From NCBI GenBank assembly GCA_918244965.1, contig CAKJYC010000016.1:8526-72525 (forward strand): a stretch of DNA of 64,000 nucleotides, written 5' to 3'. Position 1 is the first letter of the stretch. Each line of letters opens with the position of its first letter. This DNA comes from Clostridiales bacterium (lineage in GTDB: Bacteria; Bacillota; Clostridia; Christensenellales; CAG-138). A model generated the notes under the pieces. That model did no database searches and was not told where the DNA came from. It was given only the letters and a program-made list of their open reading frames with translations. The position numbers and the translations under genes were made by a program. Positions 19,942-43,336 of the stretch are shown piece by piece.

Positions 19942-21225
19942 TTATCTTCCTTCCTGTTTGCGAATGCGGGTGATGATCTCGTTCGCCTTTGCGTAGACCG
20001 CCTCCGGATCAGCGTCGATCGCATAGGTTCCGCGCTCGTAGAGGATCCTGCCCGCGATCATCGTCAGCGCGACGTTCGTCTTGCTGCCGCTGTAGACGAT
20101 GTTCTTTGCGATGTGGTTGATCGGCTGCATGTTGGGCGTCTTGAGGTCGATCATGATCAGGTCCGCCTGCTTGCCGACCGCAAGGCAGTCGCAGTCGTCG
20201 AGGCCCATCATCTTCGCGCCGACCGAGCACGCCGAATGCAGCACCTTGACCGGATCCGCCGCCGACGCGCCGACGGTCAGCTTCTGCAGTCCGGTCACGA
20301 GGAACATTTCGCGGAAGAAGTCGAGGCAGTTGTTGCTGGCTGCGCCGTCCGTACCGATCGCGACCGGAATGCCCGCCCGGTAATATTCCTCGATCGGGGC
20401 GACGCCGCTCGACAGCTTGACATTGCTGCCGGGGTTTGTACAGACGTAGACGCCGCGGCGCTTCATGATCTCAAAATCGCCGACTCTGGGATGGACCATA
20501 TGGAATCCGCCGCCGCCGTAGTTGAACATACCGAGCGAATCGAGATACGCAACCGGCGACATGCCGGTGCGCCGGAAGCAGTCCTCCACCTCCGCCGCCG
20601 TCTCCGAAAGGTGTGTGAACACCGGTGCCTTGTATTCCTCCGCGAGCGCCGCAACGTCACGAAGCAGCGATTCGTTCGTCGTATACTCGGCATGGAAGCC
20701 GAGCCGGTACGACACGAGCGGATCATAGCGGTTCATCGTTTCGTAATCGTGCCGCAGCGATTCCCCCGTTCCGCCGAAGTCATTGACCGCGCCGCATAGC
20801 ACAAACCGGAAGCCGGTATCGTGCGCGCACTGCGCGATGCGGTCCACATGGTAGTACATGTCGAACGCCGCCGTGATGCCGCCGGACACATATTCGAGCA
20901 CGGCGAGCTTTGTCAGATCGTAGATGTCGTCGCCGCAGAGGTGCGCCTCCATCGGGAAAACGTCCTCATGCAGCCAGTTGTGCAGCGGTTTGTCGTCCGC
21001 GAACGAGCGAAGGAAGGTCATGGCGGAATGCGAATGCGCATTCTTGAAGCCCGGCAGCAGCACATTGCCCTCACAGTCGATCTCGCGATCGAACGTCGGG
21101 CGCGGCTCCGTCGGATCGCCGAGCAGCGTGATGACGCCGTTCTCGACCCAAAGCTCCCCGTGTATCACCGTATCGTCCGCCGTTTGCATCGGCAGGATGC
21201 GCGCGTTGTAAAACCGAATCTTCAT
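19942..21225 (-). CDS. mtaD: Amidohydrolase, 5-methylthioadenosine/S-adenosylhomocysteine deaminase-like
   Basis: 427 aa with metal-binding LPGFKNAHSHSAM, plus HLSET and GTDGAASNN motifs of the MtaD/chlorohydrolase subgroup. Confidence 0.75.
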   Translation of the reverse strand: MKIRFYNARILPMQTADDTVIHGELWVENGVITLLGDPTEPRPTFDREIDCEGNVLLPGFKNAHSHSAMTFLRSFADDKPLHNWLHEDVFPMEAHLCGDDIYDLTKLAVLEYVSGGITAAFDMYYHVDRIAQCAHDTGFRFVLCGAVNDFGGTGESLRHDYETMNRYDPLVSYRLGFHAEYTTNESLLRDVAALAEEYKAPVFTHLSETAAEVEDCFRRTGMSPVAYLDSLGMFNYGGGGFHMVHPRVGDFEIMKRRGVYVCTNPGSNVKLSSGVAPIEEYYRAGIPVAIGTDGAASNNCLDFFREMFLVTGLQKLTVGASAADPVKVLHSACSVGAKMMGLDDCDCLAVGKQADLIMIDLKTPNMQPINHIAKNIVYSGSKTNVALTMIAGRILYERGTYAIDADPEAVYAKANEIITRIRKQEGR

Positions 21226-21401
21226 GCCGTTTCCCTCTCCCTTTGTTGTTATCTTTTAGTATACCATAGCTTTCGTACAGAGAGCATGAACATTCTATAA
21301 ACAGTAATGACCAAAGGCTCATTCATTTCTTCACCCGGATGAATTGTGCGCCCGCGGCGCGCGAATCGCATTATATATTATCGGAAAGAGGTCCCGCCGG
21401 T

Positions 21402-21430
21402 TTGACACCGATCGGCGCAAATGATATGAT
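21402..21430 (+). promoter_or_regulatory. Sigma-70-type promoter of the hut operon
   Basis: TTGACA (21402-21407), 17-nt spacer, TATGAT (21425-21430). The leader contains the hairpin CGGTCGgaaaCGACCG. Confidence 0.6.
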
Positions 21431-21483
21431 AAGCAGGTACGGTCGGAAACGACCGATCCCACTTGTTTTTGGAAGGAACGGGC

Positions 21484-23034
21484 ATGAATCATCTTACGGA
21501 AAACATTCATCATGTCGTACTGGACGGCGAACAGCTTTGCATCGAGCAGGTCGTTGCGGTCGCGCGCTTTCACGCGACGGTTTCGCTCTCGCCCGACACC
21601 TTTGCGCGCATCGACGCGTCGCGCGCGCTGGTCGACAAAATCGTTGCGGAGGGGCGCACGGTCTACGGCATCTCCACCGGCTTCGGCGAGTTCAGCAAAA
21701 TCACGATCTCAAGCGACAAGAGCGCACAGCTTCAGGAGAATCTGATCCTCTCCCACTGCGTCGCCGTCGGCGAACCGCTGAACGAGGAGACCGTCCGCGC
21801 CATGATGCTGCTGCGGGCCAACGCGCTTTCAAAGGGCAATTCCGGCATTCGCCGCGAGCTCATTGAGACGTTGATCGGCATGCTGAACGCAGGCGTGCAT
21901 CCGGTCATCCCGGAGCAGGGATCTCTCGGCGCGTCCGGCGATCTCGCACCGCTTGCGCATATGGCGCTGGTGCTTTTGGGCCGCGGTGAAGCGTTTTATA
22001 AAGGCGAACGCATGTCCGGCGCCGAGGCGATGAAACAGGCGGGACTTCCGACCTTCCACCTGCTTGCGAAGGAGGGCCTGGCGCTAATCAACGGCACGCA
22101 GTGCATGACGGCGATCGGCACGCTGGCATGGTACGATCTGCACCGCGCGGCCGAGCTTGCGGACATCACCGCGTCGCTCTCGCTGCAGGCGCTGACCGGG
22201 CTGCTGTCGGCGTTCGATCCGCGCATTCATGCGGTGCGTCCGCATGCGGGTCAGAGCCTCGTCGCAAAGAACATTCGGCTGCTCTCGGAAAACAGCCCGT
22301 CGATGGAGCGCAACCGGAGCTTACGCGTACAGGACGCATATGCGCTGCGCTGCATTCCGCAGGTGCACGGCGCGGTGCGCGACGCGCTTGCGCATGTCCG
22401 CCGCGTGCTGGAGACCGAGCTGAACTCCGTGACCGACAACCCGATCCTGTTCCTCGACGATGAAAGCGTCATTTCCGGCGGCAACTTCCACGGCGAGCCG
22501 ATCGCGCTCGTGATGGATTATCTGTCCTGCGCAGCCGCGGAGCTTTCCAACATCTCCGAGCGGCGCACCGAGCGCATGGTAAACCCGACGCTTTCTAACG
22601 GCCTGCCCGCGTTTTTAGCTCCCGACGGCGGCATCAATTCGGGCTACATGATCTGCCAGTATTCCGCAGCTTCGCTCGTGAGCGAGAACAAGGTCTTTGC
22701 GCATCCGGCAAGCGTCGACTCGATCCCCTCCTCCGCGAATCAGGAGGATCACGTTTCGATGGGTACGACCGCCGCACGCAACTGCCGCCGCATCGTGAAC
22801 AACCTTTTCTCCGTGCTCGCGTTCGAGCTGATGGCGGCGGTGCAGGGCATCGACCTGCGCAAAAATGTCGAACTGTCTCCCGCACAGCAGGGCGTCTACG
22901 ACCGCGTCCGCGCCGTCGTGCCGTTCTATGCGAAGGACGACGAGATCCACCCGATGATTGAGGCGATGAACAAGCTCATTCGCACCGGCGCGCTGGAAAA
23001 CAGCGTGAAAACGGCGCTTCCCGATTTTGACTGA
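21484..23034 (+). CDS. hutH: Histidine ammonia-lyase
   Basis: MIO-forming motif GSLGASGDLAPLAHMA. ATG at 21484 after a GGAAGGA RBS (the track start at 21463 is a TTG extension). Confidence 0.93.
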   Translation: MNHLTENIHHVVLDGEQLCIEQVVAVARFHATVSLSPDTFARIDASRALVDKIVAEGRTVYGISTGFGEFSKITISSDKSAQLQENLILSHCVAVGEPLNEETVRAMMLLRANALSKGNSGIRRELIETLIGMLNAGVHPVIPEQGSLGASGDLAPLAHMALVLLGRGEAFYKGERMSGAEAMKQAGLPTFHLLAKEGLALINGTQCMTAIGTLAWYDLHRAAELADITASLSLQALTGLLSAFDPRIHAVRPHAGQSLVAKNIRLLSENSPSMERNRSLRVQDAYALRCIPQVHGAVRDALAHVRRVLETELNSVTDNPILFLDDESVISGGNFHGEPIALVMDYLSCAAAELSNISERRTERMVNPTLSNGLPAFLAPDGGINSGYMICQYSAASLVSENKVFAHPASVDSIPSSANQEDHVSMGTTAARNCRRIVNNLFSVLAFELMAAVQGIDLRKNVELSPAQQGVYDRVRAVVPFYAKDDEIHPMIEAMNKLIRTGALENSVKTALPDFD

Positions 23035-23055
23035 TATTTCTTTAAGGAGGATTCT

Positions 23056-25056
<2,001 letters not shown>

Positions 25057-25069
25057 AGGAGACAATACT

Positions 25070-25966
25070 ATGGCAAAAATCATGGAATGTATTCCGAACA
25101 TCAGCGAAGGCCGCAGACTCGATCTCGTCGAGGAATTTGCGGACATCGTGCGCGCCGTTCCGGGCGTCACGCTCATCGACTACTCCTCCGACGCGAGCCA
25201 CAACCGCTCCGTGTTCACCTTCCTCGGCGATCCCGATCAGGTCGTGGAGGCAGCGTTCCGCTTTGCGCAGCACGCGGTCGAAAAGATCGACCTTCGCGTG
25301 CATGAAGGCGAACATCCGCGCATGGGCGCAGTCGACGTCATTCCGTTCGTGCCGATCCGCGATATGGATATGGCGGAGTGCGTGGAGCTCTCGAAAAAAC
25401 TCGGCGAACGGCTCGCAAATGAGCTGGATCTGCCGGTGTTCCTGTATGAGGAAAGCGCGTCCGCACCGCACCGCAAGAACCTCGCCGCGATCCGCAAGGG
25501 TCAGTTTGAGGGCATGGCGGCAAAAGTTTTAGAGGATCAGTGGCATCCCGATTTCGGCGGCAACCGCATTCACCCGTCCGCGGGCGTCGTGGCCGTCGGC
25601 GCGCGTCAGCCTTTGATCGCGTTCAACATCAACCTCGACACCTCCGACGTCGGAATCGCCAAGAAGATCGCAAAGATCATCCGTGAGAAGGACGGTGGCT
25701 TCCGCGCAGTCAAGGCGCTCGGCGTCATACTGGAGGAGCGCAACATCGCACAGGTCTCGATCAACATGTGCGACTATAAGCAGACGCCGCTGTACCGCGT
25801 GTTGGAGTTCGTCCGCTTCGAGGCGGCGCGCTATGGCGTGCACGTCGTCGGCACCGAGATCATCGGGCTTGCGCCGATGATGGCGTTCGTCGACGCGGCG
25901 GACTACTATCTGCAGATCGAGAAATTCGACGCGGCAAAACAGGTATTGGAGTGCCATCTGCTGTGA
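25070..25966 (+). CDS. Glutamate formimidoyltransferase
   Basis: 298 aa. The N-terminus MECIPNISEGRR and overall length match the FtcD N-terminal (formiminotransferase) domain. Confidence 0.88.
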   Translation: MAKIMECIPNISEGRRLDLVEEFADIVRAVPGVTLIDYSSDASHNRSVFTFLGDPDQVVEAAFRFAQHAVEKIDLRVHEGEHPRMGAVDVIPFVPIRDMDMAECVELSKKLGERLANELDLPVFLYEESASAPHRKNLAAIRKGQFEGMAAKVLEDQWHPDFGGNRIHPSAGVVAVGARQPLIAFNINLDTSDVGIAKKIAKIIREKDGGFRAVKALGVILEERNIAQVSINMCDYKQTPLYRVLEFVRFEAARYGVHVVGTEIIGLAPMMAFVDAADYYLQIEKFDAAKQVLECHLL

Positions 25967-27198
25967 AACGGGTCTTTTACAACATCGGAGAGCTTGCTAC
26001 GGCGACCGGATCGGTCGCCGTATCCGGCAAGGCGCAAGGCGCGCTCCTCATTCTGCACGACGCATGGATCCTCTGCGAGGACGGCCGCATCGAGGCCGTA
26101 AGCACCGGCGCGGCGCCTTCGGCTGACGAAGCGATCGACTGCCGCTCTCAGCTTGTCACACCGGGCCTTGTCGACTGCCACACGCATCTGGTGTTCGGCG
26201 GCTGGCGCGAGCACGAGCTTGCGATGAAGCTCGCGGGCAGGACGTACCTTGAGATCCTTGCGACGGGCGGCGGCATCCTGTCCACCGTGCGCGAAACGCG
26301 AAAGGCGAGCGAGGACGCGCTGTACGAAAAGACGCGCGGCCTGCTTCTCGAAGCGCTTCGGCACGGCACGACCGCGCTGGAGATCAAGAGCGGCTACGGC
26401 CTCGATCTCGAAACCGAGCAAAAGCAGCTGCGCGTGATCCGGCGTCTTCGGGAGGAATTTCGCGACGTCGCGGCGACATTCCTCGGCGCGCACGCGTTTC
26501 CGGAGGGCATGGAGCATGAGGCGTACGTCGAACGGCTGTGCAGCGAGATCATCCCCCGCATTGCCGAGGACGGGCTTGCTGACTTTTGCGACGTGTTCTG
26601 CGACGACGGCGTGTTTACCGCCGAACAGTCCGAGCGCATTCTGAACGCGGGCAAACGGTACGGGCTGATCCCGAAGCTGCACGCCGACGAGATCAAAGAG
26701 ATCGGCGGCACGCAGGCGGCGGCGCGCGTCGGCGCGATCTCCTGCGATCATCTGTCCGAAACCGGGCCGGACGGCATCCGGGCGCTCAAGGACGGCGGCG
26801 TGATCGCGGTCATGCTGCCCGCGACCTCGTTCTACCTCAGAAAGCCGTACGGCGATTTCCGCGGCATGATCGACGCAGGCGTGCCCGTGGCCGTCGCGAC
26901 CGACATGAACCCCGGCTCGACGCCGAACCTGTCGCTGCCGTTTGCCATGACCGCGGGCTGTCTGTACGGGCGGCTGACGCCCGAAGAGATCCTGACAGCC
27001 GCGACCCTGAACGGCGCGGCGGCGATCGGCATGGCGGACCGTCTCGGCTCGCTCGAAGCCGGCAAGCAGGCGGACCTCGTCGTGTGGGACGCCGACAACC
27101 TCGACCGGCTGATCTATCGCTACGGAACAAACCGCGCGTCTGCCGTGTATAAAAACGGCGTGCGCATGAACGGAAAGGAGACACTATGGAACGTTTAA
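25951..27198 (+). CDS. hutI: Imidazolonepropionase
   Basis: 415-aa amidohydrolase with GLVDCHTHLVFGGWRE and the HADE motif typical of HutI. Confidence 0.9.
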   Translation: MPSAVKRVFYNIGELATATGSVAVSGKAQGALLILHDAWILCEDGRIEAVSTGAAPSADEAIDCRSQLVTPGLVDCHTHLVFGGWREHELAMKLAGRTYLEILATGGGILSTVRETRKASEDALYEKTRGLLLEALRHGTTALEIKSGYGLDLETEQKQLRVIRRLREEFRDVAATFLGAHAFPEGMEHEAYVERLCSEIIPRIAEDGLADFCDVFCDDGVFTAEQSERILNAGKRYGLIPKLHADEIKEIGGTQAAARVGAISCDHLSETGPDGIRALKDGGVIAVMLPATSFYLRKPYGDFRGMIDAGVPVAVATDMNPGSTPNLSLPFAMTAGCLYGRLTPEEILTAATLNGAAAIGMADRLGSLEAGKQADLVVWDADNLDRLIYRYGTNRASAVYKNGVRMNGKETLWNV

Positions 27199-27842
27199 CC
27201 GATTTGACCGTTACATCCTTTATGGATACGCTTGCAAGCGACGCGCCCGCCCCCGGCGGCGGATCCGTCGCGGCGCTGTTCGGCGCATGCGGCACGGCGC
27301 TTGCCGTGATGACCGCAAACCTCACCGTCGGCAAGAAGAAATACGCCGAGCTTTGGGACAACGCCGAAGCCGCGCGGACCGAGGGCATGCCGATCGTTGC
27401 GGACTTTCTGAAGGCCGTCGATGACGACACGCAGGCGTTCAACCGTCTGATGGACGCGATGCACCTGCCCAAGGACACCGATGAGCAGAAGGCCATCCGC
27501 CGCGCGGCCATGGAGGCGGCCACCAAGGACGCCGCCGATATGCCGTTCCACACGCTGACCCTGTGCGAACGTGCGCTTTGCGTGCTCGAACAGCTCGAAG
27601 GCAAGGTCAACCCGAACTGCGCAAGCGATTTCGGCGTGGCTGCGGCTGCGCTTGTGACCGCCGCGCGCGGTGCATGGCTCAACGTGTGCATCAATCTGCA
27701 GTCGATCTCGGACGAAGCCTTCGTCGCAGATCTCTTTGCGCGTGCAAAGACAAAGCTCGACGCCGTTTCGGCGCGTGCGGAGGCCGTTTACGGCCGGATC
27801 GACGCTGCATGCCGCCCTGTTTGCAACCAAATCGAGGGATAA
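27186..27842 (+). CDS. Formimidoyltetrahydrofolate cyclodeaminase
   Basis: 218 aa with the FMDTLASDAPAPGGGSVAAL motif of the cyclodeaminase/cyclohydrolase family (FtcD C-terminal domain type). Confidence 0.85.
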   Translation: MERLTDLTVTSFMDTLASDAPAPGGGSVAALFGACGTALAVMTANLTVGKKKYAELWDNAEAARTEGMPIVADFLKAVDDDTQAFNRLMDAMHLPKDTDEQKAIRRAAMEAATKDAADMPFHTLTLCERALCVLEQLEGKVNPNCASDFGVAAAALVTAARGAWLNVCINLQSISDEAFVADLFARAKTKLDAVSARAEAVYGRIDAACRPVCNQIEG

Positions 27843-27873
27843 ACGGTATTCTTTGCAAACAGAGAAAGGAGAC

Positions 27874-29199
27874 ATGCTTATGAACCGCATGATTTGTATC
27901 TTCCTGACGGGCCTGATGCTGCTCTCGGCAGCATGTACCGCCGCGCCTAAGCCAGAGGCGGAAGCGCCGACCGAAGCGCCGAAGCCGGAGCCCGATCCGA
28001 CCGAGGCGCCCAAGCCGGAGCCGATCACAAACCCCGATCCGGTCGAGCCCGTGACCGATCCGCTCGACGAGGTCCCGGACGTGGCCGGCTATGACGGCTT
28101 TGCCGCGCTGCTGTCCGCCGCGCTGCTGTCCGGCAAATCGAACCGCAACCTCTCCCCGATCAGCGTCTATCTCGCGCTCGCAATGGTCGCGGAGGGCGCG
28201 AACGGCGAAACGCAGGCCGAGCTTCTGAAGCTGCTCGGCTGCAAGAGTCTCGCGGAGCTTCGCGGCGTCTGCGCAAAGATGCTCGAAACGCTGTCGGTCG
28301 ACGAGGAGGACGCCGTGCTCGATCTGCACAATTCGCTCTGGATGGCGGATGAGATCAACGGCGCACCCGTTTCGTTCCACGCAAGCTATCTCGAAGCGCT
28401 GTCCGATACGTTCCGCTCCGAGGCGTACGCCGTGGATTTCGGCATGCGTTCCGCCCGTGAGCAGATCGCGGCGTGGATCAACAAGTACACGCGCGGCAAG
28501 ATCGACGTGCAGCCCGACGCGCTGGAGCTCGATCCCGCGACGATCGCCGTGCTGATCAACACGATCTATCTGAAGGCAAGCTGGGCCGACACGTTCAATG
28601 AGGATGCCACCGAACCCGGCGCGTTCCACGGCCTTGACGGGGACTTCGACGTCAATTATATGTGGCGGTCCGACAAGAGCCGATCCGTCCGTCTGGGCGA
28701 CGGCTTCACCGCGTACAGCGTCAGCCTGAACCGCGTGGGCTATGTCACGTTCATCCTGCCCGACGAGGGCGTTGCGCTCGACAGCCTGCTCGGCTCGGCG
28801 GATGCGATCGACAAGCTGCTGCACGACGGCAAATACGGCCAATACGACGTGGACCTTCTGATCCCGAAATTCAAGTTCCGGGACAAGATGGAGCTGACCG
28901 ATGTGCTTTCCGCGCTGGGTCTGCGCCTATCCTTCACCCCCGACGCGGACTTTTCCGGCATGACGGACACGCCCTGCTGCATCGACAGCGTGATCCAGGA
29001 ATCGTACATCGGCGTCGATGAAAACGGCGTCGAGGCCGCAGCCTACACGATGATCTCCATGCGCGCGACCGGCATGATGCCGCAGGACATCCAGCGCATC
29101 GACTTCCATCTGACCCGCCCGTTCGCCTATGTGATCGAAGACTACGACGGCACGGTGCTGTTCATCGGCACGGTCACGAACCCGACGCCGGCGGAATAA
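27874..29199 (+). CDS. Serpin-family protease inhibitor, lipoprotein (serpin 1)
   Basis: Start at MLMNRMICIFLTGLMLLSAAC (lipobox) with a GAAAGGAG RBS. Pro/Glu-rich linker. Serpin hinge/RCL ENGVEAAAYTMISMRATGMMPQ (29026 onward) and C-terminal FHLTRPF...FIG. Only 31 nt after the cyclodeaminase stop, with no terminator between. Confidence 0.85.
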   Translation: MLMNRMICIFLTGLMLLSAACTAAPKPEAEAPTEAPKPEPDPTEAPKPEPITNPDPVEPVTDPLDEVPDVAGYDGFAALLSAALLSGKSNRNLSPISVYLALAMVAEGANGETQAELLKLLGCKSLAELRGVCAKMLETLSVDEEDAVLDLHNSLWMADEINGAPVSFHASYLEALSDTFRSEAYAVDFGMRSAREQIAAWINKYTRGKIDVQPDALELDPATIAVLINTIYLKASWADTFNEDATEPGAFHGLDGDFDVNYMWRSDKSRSVRLGDGFTAYSVSLNRVGYVTFILPDEGVALDSLLGSADAIDKLLHDGKYGQYDVDLLIPKFKFRDKMELTDVLSALGLRLSFTPDADFSGMTDTPCCIDSVIQESYIGVDENGVEAAAYTMISMRATGMMPQDIQRIDFHLTRPFAYVIEDYDGTVLFIGTVTNPTPAE

Positions 29200-29210
29200 A
29201 CAATCTTTCA

Positions 29211-29236
29211 AAAACCGCCCTTCCGGGCGGTTTTTG
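29211..29236 (+). terminator. Rho-independent terminator
   Basis: CCGCCC/GGGCGG stem (loop TTCC) followed by TTTTT. Confidence 0.75.
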
Positions 29237-29294
29237 TGTATCACTTTTGGAGTTTGAACTGTCTTAACAGACAGAACCCGAAAGGAGCAAGGTT

Positions 29295-30536
29295 ATGAAA
29301 CGCATCATTTCCGTCCTGTTGATCCTGCTGTTTGCCGCGGCATGCGCAAACGCGCCCGTGCATACGGTCGACGAATATCCCGCAAACGCCGACGTGCAGC
29401 CCGTTGCGCTCGGCTTTGACGTGCCGGAGATCGAAAGCTATGACGACTTTGCCTGCGCCCTGTCCGCCGCGCTCCTTGACGGCACGGAGAACAGAAACTT
29501 CTCCCCTGTCAGCGCATACTTTGCGCTTGCCATGGCCGCAGAAGGCGCGAACGGCGAAACGCAGAATACGCTTCTCCGCTTCCTCGGCTGTGACAGCATC
29601 GAACAGCTGCGCGACTTGACCGCGGCAATGCGGCAGGCGCTGACGCGCGAAACCGAAACCGGAGAACTCAGCCTTTGCAATTCGCTCTGGATGGGCGAGG
29701 TCTTTCCGGTGAAAAAGTCATATCAGGAACGTCTGGCGGCGCTTTACGACGCGGAGATCGACACGGTCCGCTTCGGCACCGATGACGCCGGAAAGCGCAT
29801 CGCGGGCTGGATCGAGGACAGGACGAACGGGCTCCTTTCCCCCTCGCCCGACGCAATGGAGTTTGACGAGCTGACGATCTGCGTCCTGCTCAACACGGTC
29901 TATTTCCGGGACCGGTGGTCGTGGCCGTTCGGCAGTCCGAAGCCCGACACGTTCACGCTTGCCGACGGCACGACCGAACAGGTCGACTATCTGCACCGGC
30001 GGGACGAGGTCACGGTCTATCGCGGCGAGGGCTTTTTGCGCTGCTCCGTCCGGTACGAGAGCAAGGGAAAGATCACGTTCGTTCTGCCCGACGAGGGCAC
30101 GCCGCTGAAGGACCTTCTCGGCACGCCCGACAGGCTGCAGGCGCTTCTGTCCGGCGGCGAGCGCATCGAAGCCGACGTCGATCTGCTGCTTCCGAAGTTT
30201 TCGTTCCGGGACCGGTTCGAGCTTGCGGACGTACTCTGCGCGCTGGGGCTTGCGGACGCGTTCAGAGACGGCGCGGACTTTTCCGGCATGACGGACGTGA
30301 AAACGCGGCTCGACCGTGTGATTCAGGAAACGGTCGTCGACCTCAACGAGGAAGGGACCGAAGCCGCAGCCTACACCGTGCTGCCCGCGCCGGGTGAAGC
30401 GGCGCCGGATGTGGAGCCGACGCCGCGCCCGCTCATTGCGTTTCATCTCGATCGCCCGTTCCTGTTCGTGATTTCCGGTCCCGGCGGCACGGCGCTGTTT
30501 ATCGGCACGGTGACAAGCCCGACACCCGTGAAGTAA
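29295..30536 (+). CDS. Serpin-family protease inhibitor, lipoprotein (serpin 2)
   Basis: 413 aa with a signal peptide and lipobox (LLFAAAC). Hinge/RCL EEGTEAAAYTVLPAPGEAAPDVEP (30354 onward) and FHLDRPF. Paralogous to serpin 1 but with a different, longer RCL. Confidence 0.85.
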   Translation: MKRIISVLLILLFAAACANAPVHTVDEYPANADVQPVALGFDVPEIESYDDFACALSAALLDGTENRNFSPVSAYFALAMAAEGANGETQNTLLRFLGCDSIEQLRDLTAAMRQALTRETETGELSLCNSLWMGEVFPVKKSYQERLAALYDAEIDTVRFGTDDAGKRIAGWIEDRTNGLLSPSPDAMEFDELTICVLLNTVYFRDRWSWPFGSPKPDTFTLADGTTEQVDYLHRRDEVTVYRGEGFLRCSVRYESKGKITFVLPDEGTPLKDLLGTPDRLQALLSGGERIEADVDLLLPKFSFRDRFELADVLCALGLADAFRDGADFSGMTDVKTRLDRVIQETVVDLNEEGTEAAAYTVLPAPGEAAPDVEPTPRPLIAFHLDRPFLFVISGPGGTALFIGTVTSPTPVK

Positions 30537-30547
30537 GGACGTATACC

Positions 30548-30588
30548 GAAAAATCTCCGCCGGTTTGCGGCGGAGATTTGTCATTTTG
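30548..30588. terminator. Bidirectional terminator between serpin 2 and pepT
   Basis: AAATCTCCGCC/GGCGGAGATTT 11-bp stem flanked by A- and T-rich runs. Confidence 0.7.
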
Positions 30589-30593
30589 GCGGA

Positions 30594-31814
30594 TTACCGG
30601 TCGCGGTAGAGCGCGACGAGATTTTTCAGCACCTTCACCGACAGGTCCATGCCCTCGACCGTGATGTGCTCGTACGGGCCGTGGAACGCGTAGCCGCCGG
30701 TGCCGAGATTCGGACACGGCAGACCCATGAAGGAGAGCCTTGCGCCGTCCGTGCCGCCGCGGATCGGCTGCACCTTCGGCGTGACGCCTGCCATCTCCAT
30801 CGCTTGTTTCGCGTTCTCGATCAGGTGCATGCACGGCTCGATCTTTTCCTTCATGTTGCGGTACTGATCGCGGATCGTCAGCGTGACCGTCCCTTCACCG
30901 TACTGCGCGTTGACGACGTCGGCGATCTTTTCAAGCGTCGTCTTGCGGCGCGTGAAGCTCTCAAAATCGTGATCGCGAATGATATAGGAAATCTCCGCGG
31001 CCTCCGTCGTGCCGGACAGATCCACCAGATGCCAGAAGCCCTGATAGCCCGCAGTGTCGCGCGGCGTCTGGCCCTTCGGAAGCATGCCGTTGATCTCGCA
31101 TGCGACCAGAAGCGCGTTGATCATCTTGTCCTTTGCCTCGCCCGGATGGATGTTGAAGCCGCGGATCGTAAACTTTGCGCTTGCCGCGTTGAAGTTCTCG
31201 TATTCGAGTTCGCTCTCGGCGCCGCCGTCGCAGGTGTAACCGAAATCCGCATCGAACCGCGCAAGGTCGAAGTGGTCCGCGCCGCTGCCGACCTCCTCAT
31301 CCGGTGTGAAGCAGACGGAGATCTGTCCGTGCGGAACGTTTTCCCGAATCAGCTCATCGAGCATGGTGACGATCTCGGCGACGCCCGCCTTGTCGTCCGC
31401 GCCCAAAAGTGTCGTGCCGTCAGTGACGATCAGCGTGCGGCCTTTAAGCGAGGGAAGGTGCGGGAACTGCGCCGCCGTCAGCGTTCTGCCGCTTTCGCCT
31501 AAGACGACGTCGCCGCCGTCGTAGTGCTCGATAATGCGCGGATGCACGTTCTCGCCCGAAAAGTCCGGCGCGGTGTCCATGTGCGCGATAAAGCCGAACT
31601 TTGCCGCCTTTTCATAGCCCGGCGTTGCGGGCAGCGTGCCGTAGACATAGCACAGATCGTCCACCGCGGCGTTTCGGATGCCGATCTCCTTCAGCTCGTC
31701 GACCAGTATCCGCGCAAGGTCGAACTCGCGCGCGGCGGTCGGGACCGTCGTGCTCTCCTCATCGCTCGTGGTGTGGACGGCCACGTACTTCAACAACCGT
31801 TCGTATGCTTTCAT
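30594..31814 (-). CDS. pepT: Peptidase T (tripeptide aminopeptidase, M20B)
   Basis: 406 aa. N-terminus LLKYVAVHTTSDE, the HMDTAPD metal site and GGTDGA motif are typical of PepT. Confidence 0.88.
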   Translation of the reverse strand: MKAYERLLKYVAVHTTSDEESTTVPTAAREFDLARILVDELKEIGIRNAAVDDLCYVYGTLPATPGYEKAAKFGFIAHMDTAPDFSGENVHPRIIEHYDGGDVVLGESGRTLTAAQFPHLPSLKGRTLIVTDGTTLLGADDKAGVAEIVTMLDELIRENVPHGQISVCFTPDEEVGSGADHFDLARFDADFGYTCDGGAESELEYENFNAASAKFTIRGFNIHPGEAKDKMINALLVACEINGMLPKGQTPRDTAGYQGFWHLVDLSGTTEAAEISYIIRDHDFESFTRRKTTLEKIADVVNAQYGEGTVTLTIRDQYRNMKEKIEPCMHLIENAKQAMEMAGVTPKVQPIRGGTDGARLSFMGLPCPNLGTGGYAFHGPYEHITVEGMDLSVKVLKNLVALYRDR

Positions 31815-39732: not shown

Positions 39733-40383
39733 TCAATAGGCGTAGAAATATATCTCAATGTACCAGTTCTCTGCAAGCGGCTCCAGCTCCGAATAGCGGA
39801 TCTGCTCCGCGGTGTTTTCCGTATAGATCAGCCAGACCGCATAGAGGGTGCCGGGGTCCTGATACATCGTCGTGTCGATCGCCATCGGGAGATTCACTTC
39901 GAAAAACGGCGCGGCGTCCTCCGTAAAGACCGGCTCCGGCCCGGTCCGGTAAAAACCGATCCCCGTCTCTTCCGACAGTGCGACCAAAGCCTGCACGCTT
40001 TCCGGAAGCGTCGCGGGATCGACCGTTGCGTTCCCGTTCTGTTCCGGATCCCACACATACGCCTTACCGTTGATAACATAGAACCGGTCAAAATCCGGCC
40101 ACTCCTTTGCGGCAAGCTCGAACGCTTCCCGGTACTCTGCGAACAGCGCTTCGGCTTCCGCCCGCCTCTCTTCCGGCGGCAGGATCGGGTACGGCCCGTA
40201 TTCCGTGCCGGTGCAGGTAAAATAGGGGTTCAGCACCGGATCCTTGACCTCCGGTTCGCTTGTTTCCTCGGGTAAGTCCGCAGGCTGTTCCGTCGCTTCA
40301 CTTTGTTTTTCCGTTCCTCCCATGCTGCATCCGAGCAGCAAAGCGATCGCAAGCAGGATGATCCGAAGCCGTTTTTGTTTCAT
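39733..40383 (-). CDS. Hypothetical lipoprotein, paralogous to a module of the adjacent anti-sigma-like protein
   Basis: MKQKRLRIILLAIALLLGCS lipobox. The C-terminus YAVWLIYTENTAEQIRYSELEPLAENWYIEIYFY aligns with YEVWLIHTENAQEQFAEAYRDAIEPLWGDWYLYVLY in the upstream gene. Confidence 0.65.
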   Translation of the reverse strand: MKQKRLRIILLAIALLLGCSMGGTEKQSEATEQPADLPEETSEPEVKDPVLNPYFTCTGTEYGPYPILPPEERRAEAEALFAEYREAFELAAKEWPDFDRFYVINGKAYVWDPEQNGNATVDPATLPESVQALVALSEETGIGFYRTGPEPVFTEDAAPFFEVNLPMAIDTTMYQDPGTLYAVWLIYTENTAEQIRYSELEPLAENWYIEIYFYAY

Positions 40384-40389
40384 AGTCTT

Positions 40390-42738
40390 TTACCCGTTTA
40401 CTGCATTGCCCGATTGATCCATGATCGTCATCGACCTTGCGAACGCAAAGAACAGATACGTCAGTTCGGATTCGTCCGCTTCCTTACAAAGAAATTGCAC
40501 CAGATAGAAGGCCGTATCTCCCTTGAATGCAAAGTTCCAACCGCACATGCCGTTTCTGCGATAGCGATAGAAGATCAGCCCGTCCCGTTCCTCCGGCTGT
40601 GCATCGGAATTGTTGTTCCGGATCACGTTTTCCATGTACTCTGTCAGCGTTTCGTCCGCAAGCCCGGCTTTCAGCGTAAACGGTTCGACCTTGATCATGA
40701 CCGCGCCGAAATAAGACGTGTAGTAGCCGTCGAAGCCCATCTCGCTCTTCTGCTCGCTGAACTGTTCGGTCAGCGTGATCTGATAGCCGTCTCCGGCAAA
40801 CACCTTGCTTTTTCCGTACTTGCCGTTCAGAATATCGCTGTCATCCGGCGCAAAATCTCCGTTTATCTCCACAAACTGTTTTACAATGCTGTCAAAGTCC
40901 GCCGTGCCTTCCTCCGTCAAAGAGGAGGCGGAAAGAAACAGGATGTTTGTACCGATGGTATTCAGCTTTGCTATGCAGATATAGGAATCGTAATTCCTGT
41001 TATAATAATGCACGCTCACAATGCCCGGTGCGATCTCAACAGATTCCGCCGTATCGAAGTCCTCCGGCTTATCATCCCATCCGTCCGCTGTAAGATACCA
41101 GGTCAGAAGGTCCTTTCCGTTCAGCATGCTTTCCGCGACCAGATAATAGTCCATATCCGTAAGTCCGACCGTTTGCAAGGCGTCCATATCAAGCTCCAAA
41201 AGCGCTTTTTCCGTTGCGGAGAGCTTTTGATCCTTGTTCGCCTGAATCTCGAATGTTTCCGGGAACAGGCAGGAATACCCCTGCCATTTCTGCGTTTTCA
41301 GTTGAATCTCCGATTCGCGGTAAAGCACATACAGATACCAGTCGCCCCAAAGCGGCTCAATCGCGTCCCGGTATGCCTCGGCAAACTGCTCCTGCGCGTT
41401 TTCCGTGTGGATCAGCCACACCTCGTATGCGGACTGTGCTTCGTCTCTGCTTTCGGGCATCGTCACAACAAAGCACGGCTCCGAATCCTTTGCAAACGGA
41501 TGACCCGGTTCATATCGAAGCAGCCGCCCTTCCCAATAGATGGTGACGCCCTTTTCTTTGGCTCGCGCAGCCAATACCTGCAATTCCGACGGCAGCTTCG
41601 TGATTTCCACTACGGCACGCATATCTTCGTACGGACGTTGATACGACCCTCTTCCATCCTCATCGATCATCAAATCCAGATAGTATCCGGGATTTTTGGT
41701 TCTGGCGCTCTCCAACAGCTCCCGATTCTGCTCAAAGAATGCCCGCATCTGTGCGGTCTGCTCCGTCCGTCCGGTCGGCTTTGCCGGATAGCCGTTCATC
41801 TGAATGAACGCATACACCAACCGGTCATACAGATCGATCCCCGTTTCCGTCGCCGCCAAGGCGTACAGAATCAGTCCCTTCGTTCCGTCGGTGCCGACCT
41901 TTGCGTAACACAGGTAGCCGTCGTCATACTCCACATGGCGGCATACCACATCCGGATAGACCGTCCGTGCGGAGTGCAGCACGGCATTTTCATCGGAGGC
42001 GCCCGATCCGGTGTTGTTCAGCACAACGTCGATCTGCTCGCGCAGCGGCGTCGCATCCCAATCGTCAAATGCTTCCTCCGGCCGCAGTCCGTATACGATG
42101 CTCGGAAGGTCCTTCGCATCTTCTTCGTTTTTCGGAAGGAACATGATAATGTTCGGAACATCATACAGGACGTCGTACTCTGCGATCATCAGGCAGCGAT
42201 ATCCGTTCCAGGTAAATGCCTCAGTCTGTATCTCCGGCAGCTCTTCGACCGGCGTCAGCGGCATCCCGCCCGGTGCGGGGCCGGGTTCGCTTGTTGCGGG
42301 CGGTTCCTGCTCCGTCGGCAACACAGGCGCGTCCGTCGTCTGCGGCGGTACCTCCTGCGGCTTCGGTTCATGCGTGTCGTTCAGCTCCGCCATCGGCTCC
42401 GAGGGCGCGCCTTCGCCCTTTTTCGATCCACGGAACAGGCCGACGCCGAACACCAGACCGACGATGCAGGCGATCGCGACGGCGGCCATGCCGTAGCTGA
42501 GGACCCGGCTGAACCGCTTTTGCGGCCGCGCGGGCTGCTGCGGTTCGACGGGCGCGGCAACGGTCGCTGATGCGGATGTATTCGGTTTGGCCTTCTGTTT
42601 TCCGTACAGCGCCGTTTCAAAGCGCGCCTGCGACGCCGCGGGGATCGGCTCGGTTTCCGGATGCAGCAGATTGCCCTGCGCTTCGGCGTCCTTGCGCACG
42701 GCGTCACGCAGCAGTTTTTCAAAGGATCGTTTCCGCAT
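40390..42738 (-). CDS. Single-pass membrane protein, putative anti-sigma factor with a large repeated extracytoplasmic domain
   Basis: ATG at 42738 with AAGGAGG 6 nt upstream, overlapping the sigma gene end by 20 nt. Short cytoplasmic N-terminus, one TM helix (GMAAVAIACIVGLVFGVGLF), a Pro-rich linker, then about 640 aa of repeated modules. Confidence 0.6.
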   Translation of the reverse strand: MRKRSFEKLLRDAVRKDAEAQGNLLHPETEPIPAASQARFETALYGKQKAKPNTSASATVAAPVEPQQPARPQKRFSRVLSYGMAAVAIACIVGLVFGVGLFRGSKKGEGAPSEPMAELNDTHEPKPQEVPPQTTDAPVLPTEQEPPATSEPGPAPGGMPLTPVEELPEIQTEAFTWNGYRCLMIAEYDVLYDVPNIIMFLPKNEEDAKDLPSIVYGLRPEEAFDDWDATPLREQIDVVLNNTGSGASDENAVLHSARTVYPDVVCRHVEYDDGYLCYAKVGTDGTKGLILYALAATETGIDLYDRLVYAFIQMNGYPAKPTGRTEQTAQMRAFFEQNRELLESARTKNPGYYLDLMIDEDGRGSYQRPYEDMRAVVEITKLPSELQVLAARAKEKGVTIYWEGRLLRYEPGHPFAKDSEPCFVVTMPESRDEAQSAYEVWLIHTENAQEQFAEAYRDAIEPLWGDWYLYVLYRESEIQLKTQKWQGYSCLFPETFEIQANKDQKLSATEKALLELDMDALQTVGLTDMDYYLVAESMLNGKDLLTWYLTADGWDDKPEDFDTAESVEIAPGIVSVHYYNRNYDSYICIAKLNTIGTNILFLSASSLTEEGTADFDSIVKQFVEINGDFAPDDSDILNGKYGKSKVFAGDGYQITLTEQFSEQKSEMGFDGYYTSYFGAVMIKVEPFTLKAGLADETLTEYMENVIRNNNSDAQPEERDGLIFYRYRRNGMCGWNFAFKGDTAFYLVQFLCKEADESELTYLFFAFARSMTIMDQSGNAVNG

Positions 42739-43273
42739 AGCCGTCCTCCTTGCAGAATTGCAGCACCGCACGGCGCGCACGCGTCAGATACACGCGCACC
42801 GTGTTCTTCGAGACGCCGAGCGCCTTTGCGATCTCGCCGTCGCGCAGTTCCAAAAGATACTTATACCGCAGCACGTCCCGAAGGCTCTCCGGAAGCTTAG
42901 AAACCGCGCGCTTGACCTCCTCGACGGTCAGGCTGTTGATCGCGCGCTCCTCGACCGACGCCGACGTGTCGCCGATCTCGATCTCCTCGATCGGAACGCT
43001 CGCCTGCCTGCCGCGCTTTTGCAGCCGATTCAGCGCGTTTCGCTTGACCGCGGTGATCAGATATACCGCCCGCGCGGCTTCCGGCAGCGCGCGCAGCGTG
43101 TCGATTTTGCGGATGCAGCGCACAAACGTGTCCTGCACGGCATCCTCCGCCGCGCTCGGTTCGCGCAGGATCGCAAGCGCCGTGCGCTTCATGCGGTGAT
43201 AGTTCGACGCGAACAGCTCGCTCATCAGCGCGCGATCCGATTCGCTATCCAAAACCAGTAACAGTAGAATCAT
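42719..43273 (-). CDS. ECF-type RNA polymerase sigma-70 family factor
   Basis: Region 2 (AEDAVQDTFVR) and region 4 HTH (LRDGEIAKALGVSKNTVRVYLTRAR). The first ATG is at 43273. The GTG at 43306 is an alternative start. Confidence 0.8.
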   Translation of the reverse strand: MILLLLVLDSESDRALMSELFASNYHRMKRTALAILREPSAAEDAVQDTFVRCIRKIDTLRALPEAARAVYLITAVKRNALNRLQKRGRQASVPIEEIEIGDTSASVEERAINSLTVEEVKRAVSKLPESLRDVLRYKYLLELRDGEIAKALGVSKNTVRVYLTRARRAVLQFCKEDGYAETIL

Positions 43274-43336
43274 CGTGGTACAGCCCCCCTGTTGCCCTCT
43301 ATACACATAGACAAGCGTGCGGCCAAAAGTGCTACA

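Follow-up and report, generated by a model that had tools for sequence, protein, structure and literature searches.

The DNA analysed here, referred to below as the window, is a stretch of 64,000 nucleotides from a Clostridiales bacterium (contig CAKJYC010000016.1, positions 8,526 to 72,525 of the forward strand). It carries two paralogous serpin open reading frames in tandem, serpin 1 at 27874–29199 (plus strand, 441 aa) and serpin 2 at 29295–30536 (plus strand, 413 aa). Serpin 1 closely follows the last gene of a histidine utilisation (hut) operon, and an earlier sequence-only reading took this arrangement as a coupling between histidine catabolism and protease inhibition. The question raised by the locus is what controls the two serpin genes. 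The best overall explanation appears to be that each serpin is the output of a different envelope sensor with a sigma factor of the extracytoplasmic function (ECF) type, and we consider this likely.

The source is a 2.3-Mb metagenome-assembled genome (MAG) from a genus of uncultured Clostridia of rumen or gut that is represented by MAGs only. Nearly every member of the genus has one to four serpins per genome, whereas mostly none are found in other families of the order. A maximum-likelihood tree of the serpins shows three clades. Clade A consists of the hut-linked serpins, including serpin 1, and clade C of the serpin 2 type, each with a support of 100/100. Clade B includes a third serpin of this genome, found on another contig (C11).

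A promoter-like motif at the hut–serpin 1 junction

The stop codon of the last hut gene, a cyclodeaminase, is at 27842 and the first ATG of serpin 1 at 27874, a gap of 31 nt. A promoter-like motif, GCAACC-N15-CGGTAT (termed ECF-1), spans this junction at 27823–27849 on the plus strand. It is found at 20 of 20 hut-linked serpins, with 0 occurrences expected in the window. The −35 part falls within the cyclodeaminase codons for Cys-Asn-Gln, the spacer holds the stop codon, and the −10 part lies after the stop. The conserved form is (T)GCAACC, 15 variable bases and CGGTAT(T). Conservation of the 31-nt junction spacer and of the final cyclodeaminase codons far exceeds that of the serpin, and the most divergent species (G016) keeps the ECF-1 spacing despite a different spacer sequence and stop position. 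The sequence-only reading had named an internal promoter as what would speak against its proposal, and in silico an element of this kind is present at the junction in the form of a conserved bipartite ECF-type motif with fixed spacing. A scan for a sigma-70 promoter at the junction finds none; TTGCAA and TATTCT are present there, but at 20 nt apart they are too widely separated to form one.

The motif is also found away from hut. It is upstream of 11 of 13 clade B serpins, where it is in purely intergenic DNA after a terminator. The pattern GCAACC-N15-BGGTATT gives 66 matches in 13 genomes versus 1 for the reversed control, and in the genome studied here the motif has 13 matches versus 3.3 ± 1.8 after shuffling. 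In this genome it is also found upstream of an ECF sigma factor gene, sigma-1, which carries Sigma70_r2 and r4_2 domains and is on another contig (C21) than serpins 1 and 2. Orthologues of sigma-1 show the motif approximately 62 nt upstream in 15 of 16 species under the strict pattern, and the 16th has a GGTGT variant. ECF regulons are by standard practice defined in this way, through a motif that is conserved before the ECF sigma gene and recurs before further genes (PMC3817407, PMC3397946). From this we infer that ECF-1 is the promoter used by sigma-1. The ECF-type motif at the junction, and the same motif before the sigma-1 gene and before stand-alone serpin paralogues, speak against hut coupling as the main logic of serpin 1 expression, which is what the sequence-only reading had put forward. 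The regulatory signal that is conserved points to sigma factors of the envelope-stress kind.

Overlapping the sigma-1 gene is one that encodes a single-pass membrane protein of 714 aa (C21:~88100-90240, minus strand). The ectodomain of this putative anti-sigma-1 shows a match of 488 bits to the PF09826 beta-propeller, which is catalogued as a domain of unknown function.

Other predicted members of the ECF-1 group encode envelope proteins. The motif is found approximately 285 nt upstream of a gene for a 652-aa lipoprotein on contig C11, that is, upstream of the operon with the third serpin. ECF-1 targets kept across species include a 138-aa lipoprotein, a 388-aa membrane protein and a DUF4349 lipoprotein. 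A further target is a 270-aa lipoprotein gene at C32:1786-2595 (L096), with the motif at C32:1703; of 12 distinct loci of its orthologues, 11 have the motif. The 270-aa protein falls in no Pfam or NCBIfam family but has more than 1100 homologues in metagenomes. Its AlphaFold2 model (pLDDT 82) shows two helix-plus-sheet domains, and each of these cystatin-fold domains contains one of two invariant Q-x-V-A-G motifs. Cystatins are the best hits in a Foldseek search with this model, phytocystatin first (E-value = 1.5e-6), followed by fetuin-B, sialostatin L2 and tarocystatin-papain. The structural similarity suggests that the ECF-1 regulon would combine inhibitors of serine proteases and, probably, of cysteine proteases.

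In the two-gene stretch C11:1070-4317, the third serpin (clade B, 426 aa) begins 9 nt after the 652-aa lipoprotein gene, whose product likewise falls in no Pfam or NCBIfam family.

Serpin 2 and a second ECF system

Serpin 2 is preceded by another motif, GTATCAC-N15-TGTCT (ECF-2), at 29238–29264 on the plus strand. A related copy, GTAGCAC-N15-TGTCT, at 43309–43335 on the minus strand, has an autoregulatory-type position upstream of a second ECF sigma gene, sigma-2 (42722–43273, minus strand; Sigma70_r2 and r4_2 in Pfam), which is found 12.7 kb downstream of serpin 2. With regions 2 and 4 only, sigma-1 and sigma-2 both have the make-up of group IV sigma factors. In the window the combined pattern GTAKCAC-N15-TGTCT has exactly two matches, those at serpin 2 and sigma-2, versus 0.01 expected. 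The sequence upstream of sigma-2 reads TGTAGCACTTTTGG-N10-CTTGTCT and that upstream of serpin 2 reads TGTATCACTTTTGG-N10-ACTGTCT. Genome-wide, there are four copies of CACTTTT-N11-13-TGTCT, and each stands before sigma-2, before serpin 2 or before a gene whose product is exported.

Orthologues of sigma-2 are found in 11 other species, and all carry TGTAAC(AC)-N17-(C/T)GTCT or a close variant approximately 65 nt upstream; the strict ECF-2 pattern is present at 5 of 14 sigma-2 loci, the locus in the window included. The paralogues of sigma-2 carry sigma-A-like promoters instead, and both ECF-1 and ECF-2 are absent from the upstream regions of paralogous sigma factors. Of the five clade C serpin genes, four have the ECF-2 motif in front; the one without it belongs to G010, a genome in which no sigma-2 orthologue was found. 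Taken together, these positions point to ECF-2 as the promoter used by sigma-2.

As with sigma-1, the sigma-2 gene overlaps a gene for a single-pass membrane protein. This anti-sigma-like protein of approximately 782 aa (40390–42738, minus strand) has no Pfam or NCBIfam family. It is followed by a 216-aa lipoprotein (39733–40383, minus strand), also with no Pfam family.

A palindrome, CTGTCT-N4-AGACAG, at 29259–29274 overlaps the ECF-2 −10 box just upstream of the ribosome-binding site of serpin 2. It recurs at other sigma-2-type promoters (C21:~132149, L130) and may act as an additional operator or form a hairpin where the mRNA begins, at its 5′ end.

Fold, lipid anchor and reactive-centre loops

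Serpins 1 and 2 are assigned to the serpin superfamily by Pfam PF00079 (MEROPS I4), with scores of 231 and 234 bits, respectively, against a cut-off of 27. The matches are full-length and cover profile positions 6–370 in one serpin and 2–370 in the other, of 370. These matches, the open reading frames and the lipoboxes described below all agree with the earlier description of two paralogous lipoprotein serpins of 441 and 413 aa. Serpin 1 may, however, be 439 aa long. Comparison with 19 orthologues shows that the second ATG, at 27880 (MNR/MKR), is the conserved start; it lies 8 nt after a GGAG sequence and is probably the true start.

The AlphaFold2 model of serpin 1 has a pLDDT of 82 overall and approximately 90 in the core; the N-terminal 70 residues are disordered and loop residues 396–406 are of low confidence. 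Searched against the PDB, the model gives 410 matches at E ≤ 0.001, and all 50 among the matches listed are serpins. The modelled structure is a loop-inserted form that resembles cleaved CBG and latent tengpin. Tengpin is also among the best PDB matches by sequence. Another sequence match (E-value = 3e-28) is to the entry 5ncs, labelled 'Serpin', which we take to be miropin of Tannerella forsythia; its relation to the serpins described here is distant.

Both N-termini carry a lipobox of the PROSITE PS51257 type, LLSAAC in serpin 1 and FAAAC in serpin 2, and the same is found in 37 of 39 related serpins of the genus. The PS51257 rule calls for a Cys at position 15–35 after a basic n-region and a hydrophobic h-region. 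The predicted signal peptide of serpin 1 is encoded at 27874–27936 (plus strand; LSAA-C, Cys21 codon at 27934–27936), and serpin 2 has the lipobox FAAA-C (Cys17) and a short tether. The genome encodes the processing enzymes Lgt (three matches, best 149 bits) and LspA (101 bits). In serpin 1 the lipobox is followed by a tether of approximately 49 residues rich in Pro, Glu, Thr and Ala (27937–28083, plus strand), with pLDDT below 55 in the model. Tethers in clade A vary from 36 to 101 residues and share only 36% identity, versus 67% for the serpin core.

The hinge is E-N-G-V-E-A-A-A-Y-T in serpin 1 and E-E-G-T-E-A-A-A-Y-T in serpin 2. Both have the features taken to mark an inhibitory hinge, which are Glu at P17, Gly at P15, a small or uncharged P14 and an Ala-rich P12–P10. 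The form E-x-G-[TV]-E-A-A-A-Y-T is kept in all three clades across 37 paralogues, and P17–P8 are invariant. Thus the lipobox, the presence of Lgt and LspA and the hinge and loop sequences bear out what had been proposed earlier on lipid anchoring, canonical hinges and differing reactive loops, and they support the prediction that both serpins are lipid-anchored and of inhibitory type.

In serpin 1 the hinge and reactive-centre loop, E383–D410, are encoded at 29020–29103 (plus strand), and canonical counting places R397 at P3 and T399 at P1. Within clade A, P17–P7 are invariant, P3 is basic (Arg or Lys) in 19 of 19 loops and P1 is Thr in 19 of 19; a small residue occupies P1′ and an aromatic or hydrophobic one P2′, so that the core reads R/K(P3)-A/T-T(P1)-small-F/Y. 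Clade B loops are variable from P3 to P1′. Clade C loops are Pro-rich with a conserved APGEA, as in the serpin 2 loop, E352–A382 (30348–30440, plus strand), in which the canonical P1 is Glu368. From the hinge to strand s1C the loops of serpins 1 and 2 are 18 and 21 residues long, versus 12 for the alpha-1-antitrypsin loop as grafted into conserpin. This upholds the earlier statement that both are longer than the loop of alpha-1-antitrypsin, and the extra length is on the primed side in both. An arms-race reading of serpin 1, with a hypervariable loop, was considered and rejected, as P3 to P2′ are nearly invariant in clade A.

Read-through from hut, rival explanations and known systems

The genes upstream of serpin 1 (21484–27842, plus strand) are predicted from Pfam matches, and from a gene order as in relatives, to form a complete anaerobe-type hut operon. 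They consist of hutH (ending at 23034), hutU (23056–25056), a glutamate formimidoyltransferase (25070–25966; NCBIfam FtcD, 420 bits), hutI (25951–27198) and the formimino-THF cyclodeaminase (PF04961, 27186–27842). A strong sigma-70-type promoter with TG, TTGACA-17-TATGAT, is found at 21402–21430 on the plus strand; it has 11 of 12 matches and is the sole such site in 20800–31000. The junction with serpin 1 displays no hairpin of terminator type. There is a 10-bp inverted repeat without a U tract, and the fold z-score is −0.68, so that the 31-nt gap without a hairpin is as the sequence-only reading gave it. The reading was also correct in that the first intrinsic terminator downstream of the hut promoter follows serpin 1, at 29209–29236 (plus strand, approximately −20 kcal/mol, z = −3.8).

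The succession of cyclodeaminase and clade A serpin, with a gap of 31–43 nt and no terminator, is present in 20 genomes, including the most divergent (42% serpin identity). A terminator-like hairpin is found 3′ of serpin 1 in every one of the 19 relatives whose sequence covers this region, in most cases with a U tract. The gene next to the clade A serpin is not constant; it may be a serpin of clade B or of clade C, or pepT may follow at once. A contrasting case is G023 (L116, C5), which has hutI and the cyclodeaminase but no serpin. Here an intrinsic terminator and then a convergent gene come directly after the cyclodeaminase, which ends six residues earlier (…DCLPAQ*) and is without the C-terminal CNQIEG tail. 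In the other genomes this tail is encoded by the serpin promoter, and the comparison suggests that the tail arose by overprinting when the serpin cassette joined hut. Outside the genus, the hut–serpin linkage is absent in the sole serpin context examined from another family of the order (G025). The conservation within the genus supports the view that the adjacency of hut and serpin 1 is not due to chance. Since the serpin-bearing genomes are without the hut terminator that G023 has, read-through into serpin 1 is structurally expected, and it is plausible that hut transcripts extend into the serpin. Thus the proposed co-transcription of serpin 1 with hut stands in part: conserved adjacency in 20 genomes, the missing terminator and the contrast with G023 favour it, while serpin 1 also has an ECF-type motif of its own at the junction.

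The explanation favoured here may be set out as follows. After Sec export and processing by Lgt and LspA, each serpin would be anchored on the outside of the cytoplasmic membrane. The tether of serpin 1, disordered, acidic, Pro-rich and approximately 50 residues in length, would be long enough to cross the wall, and each serpin would trap extracellular proteases by the suicide-substrate mechanism. Serpin 1 would be transcribed from its own ECF-1 promoter, overprinted on the last cyclodeaminase codons. This promoter would belong to the regulon of the autoregulated sigma-1, with its membrane partner carrying a beta-propeller ectodomain (contig C21), and the regulon would also comprise the third serpin operon, the tandem cystatin-fold lipoprotein and other envelope proteins. 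Serpin 2 would be transcribed from the promoter type of the second ECF sigma/anti-sigma pair. Because there is no terminator between hut and serpin 1, hut transcripts probably also enter serpin 1 and end at 29209–29236, which would give a histidine-linked basal expression. Judged from the sequence comparisons, the serpins thus have the look of a shield against proteases that can be induced, and histidine catabolism would not be the main reason for their expression.

A more elaborate form of this explanation is tentative and rather doubtful. In it the shield would be modular: two ECF sensors would each switch on a serpin with a different loop, with sigma-1 also switching on the cystatin-fold lipoprotein. 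The large anti-sigma ectodomains would act as protease bait, a cut made in them by a protease from outside would set off regulated proteolysis and so free the sigma factor, and each class of protease would call forth a matching inhibitor, with hut read-through as a nutritional input.

Several observations weigh against the assignment to two ECF sensors. The textbook −10 part of ECF promoters is CGTC, and the ECF-1 −10 part, CGGTAT, differs from it. Neither the membrane partner of sigma-1 nor that of sigma-2 shows a Pfam match to an anti-sigma domain. The link from motif to sigma factor is drawn solely by the argument from autoregulation. The −35 part at serpin 2 is degenerate (GTATCA, versus TGTAAC upstream of sigma-2), and at the loci of the cystatin-fold lipoprotein the motif is overlapped by a sigma-A-like promoter. 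For the inhibitory function of serpin 2, Pro at P5 and P3 may hinder loop insertion.

The coupling to histidine catabolism has to be weighed against these ECF systems. In that account serpin 1 is merely the last hut cistron, expressed only with histidine catabolism and linking foraging to protease inhibition. The 31-nt gap without a terminator, the adjacency in 20 genomes and the separate hut terminator of the serpin-free G023 all fit, as does a proteolytic genome with four secreted S8 subtilases of 1200–2578 aa and an adjoining pepT, and Bifidobacterium longum offers a precedent, its serpin production being under nutrient control (PMC8012564). However, it does not account for a conserved motif of ECF type and fixed spacing at the junction, with the identical motif at stand-alone paralogues and at a sigma gene, and the adjacency is explicable as an ancestral insertion that was frozen because the −35 part overlaps coding sequence. 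Control by hut only is considered unlikely. A reading in which the junction sequence is an RNA stem-loop or a repressor operator on the hut/serpin mRNA, with no promoter, is the most improbable of those considered. It takes its support from a perfect 10-bp inverted repeat, 27817–27826 (CTGTTTGCAA) and 27853–27862 (TTGCAAACAG), in which one base pair shows weak covariation, from UA to CG in five sequences. RNAalifold gives a consensus of only −2.6 kcal/mol, without covariation, slid controls score as high in covariation as the proposed structure, and Rfam gives nothing significant in 21200–30700. The pairing is also broken in several species, and where the motif stands alone, both boxes are kept without the left arm. 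With that RNAalifold consensus, and with pair counts no better than those of the slid controls, the idea that the junction holds a conserved RNA structure was rejected. The inverted repeat encloses the cyclodeaminase stop and the −10 box and may be either an operator or a chance occurrence.

Two further alternatives concern function. The serpins may chiefly restrain subtilisin-like proteases of the organism itself or of neighbouring bacteria and not those of host digestion or immunity. This is possible rather than probable, it concerns the targets only, and it is compatible with regulation by ECF sigma factors. The four large S8 subtilases have Sec signal peptides (C63:12677-16349; C10:25644-29688; C73, a 2578-aa open reading frame; C19:34311-38754; one also with Big_2 repeats); they suggest that the organism lives by proteolysis, and the serpins may have them as targets. 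Across species the loop of clade A is conserved, which would fit a constant target. Subtilisins prefer hydrophobic residues at P4 and P1, and the M-I-S-M stretch at P7–P4 of the loop fits this preference. PinA of Clostridium thermocellum is reported to inhibit subtilisins (cited in PMC8201313). On the other side, the invariant basic P3 and Thr P1 recall the V-K-T of miropin, which is used against trypsin-like and Lys-specific enzymes (bioRxiv 10.1101/2025.09.05.674453). Given the organism's own S8 subtilases, a self-protective role is no less plausible than one directed at proteases of the host or the rumen. The remaining alternative, that one or both serpins are non-inhibitory binding or chaperone proteins, is decidedly unlikely. 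Serpin 2 would be the candidate, with Pro at P5 and P3, a very long Pro-rich loop and a clade on a long stem of 1.14 substitutions per site. Against this, the hinge is kept in all clades, and the loop-inserted model of serpin 1 is like cleaved or latent inhibitory serpins.

Surface lipoprotein serpins and conditionally expressed gut serpins are already known, the former from miropin and the latter from bifidobacteria (PMC8012564). Miropin of T. forsythia, as described in later preprints, is a surface-displayed lipoprotein serpin whose suggested role is to protect surface proteins against proteases of host and bacteria (PMC13692248; bioRxiv 10.1101/2025.09.05.674453). Its V-K-T-S has Thr at the canonical P1, with Lys-Thr as the P2–P1 bond, and three neighbouring bonds are used (bioRxiv 10.1101/2025.09.05.674453); the clade A loops are similar in having R/K just upstream, at P3, and an invariant Thr at P1. 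Unlike the serpins described here, miropin is found in a diderm member of the Bacteroidota, has an outer-membrane anchor and no long Pro/Glu tether, and is a single gene; no report of ECF control of miropin was found in the literature. The Bifidobacterium serpins (B. longum BL0108, B. breve) are likewise membrane-retained, conditionally expressed gut serpins (PMC8012564), the condition being a prediction in the present case. The B. breve serpin is protease-inducible through a two-component system and that of B. longum is carbohydrate-controlled (PMC8012564). Thus the regulators there are a two-component system or of LacI type and here, by prediction, ECF sigma factors; the anchor there is an uncleaved N-terminal segment and here a lipobox; and a single serpin gene there contrasts with a family of divergent loops here.

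The siropins of Eubacterium siraeum, PinA and tengpin are, like the serpins described here, serpins of the class Clostridia with inhibitory hinges. Siropins are cleaved at the non-canonical P3–P2 and P6–P5 bonds (PMC5127057). Siropin 1 is predicted to be intracellular, siropin 2 extracellular and PinA cellulosome-docked, unlike the lipoprotein serpins, and none of the siropins, PinA or tengpin is reported as a lipoprotein or as an ECF target. The envelope-stress systems sigma-V/RsiV and sigma-W/RsiW of Bacillus and Clostridioides resemble the two systems here in a sigma gene followed by a single-pass membrane partner, an autoregulatory-type promoter with AAC in the −35 and a G/C-T-rich −10, and a regulon of envelope proteins (PMC4183432, PMC9044953, PMC3817407). 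They differ in that the predicted outputs here are protease inhibitors (serpins and a cystatin-fold lipoprotein) and that one partner has a PF09826 beta-propeller as its ectodomain and the other an unclassified domain of approximately 640 residues.

No literature linking serpins to ECF sigma factors was found; the one paper in which both terms occur treats them separately. Little is known of the regulation of bacterial serpins, and the mechanisms found in the literature are the two-component system and sugar control of bifidobacteria. What appears particular to the present locus is a promoter overprinted on the end of a catabolic operon, tandem paralogues with two ECF motifs and a cystatin-fold co-target. 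If the link between ECF sensor, serpin and cystatin is true, it would be a testable model for surface protection in proteolytic gut and rumen anaerobes, whose habitat is rich in proteases, and two uncharacterised anti-sigma ectodomains would gain a candidate signal. The locus also illustrates that conserved adjacency can mislead, in that the serpin passes for a member of the catabolic operon when its promoter is written over the last codons of that operon.

The serpin array ends with an intrinsic terminator after serpin 2 (30551–30579, plus strand), which is strong and of the hairpin-plus-U type, like the one after serpin 1. A convergent tripeptidase gene, pepT (30594–31814, minus strand, 563 bits), is its conserved downstream neighbour. 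In a related genome (G002:C43, L019), approximately 470 nt between two serpins hold an ECF-2-type motif and a ribosome-binding site but no long open reading frame. This stretch may be the remnant of a lost gene of the serpin 2 type.

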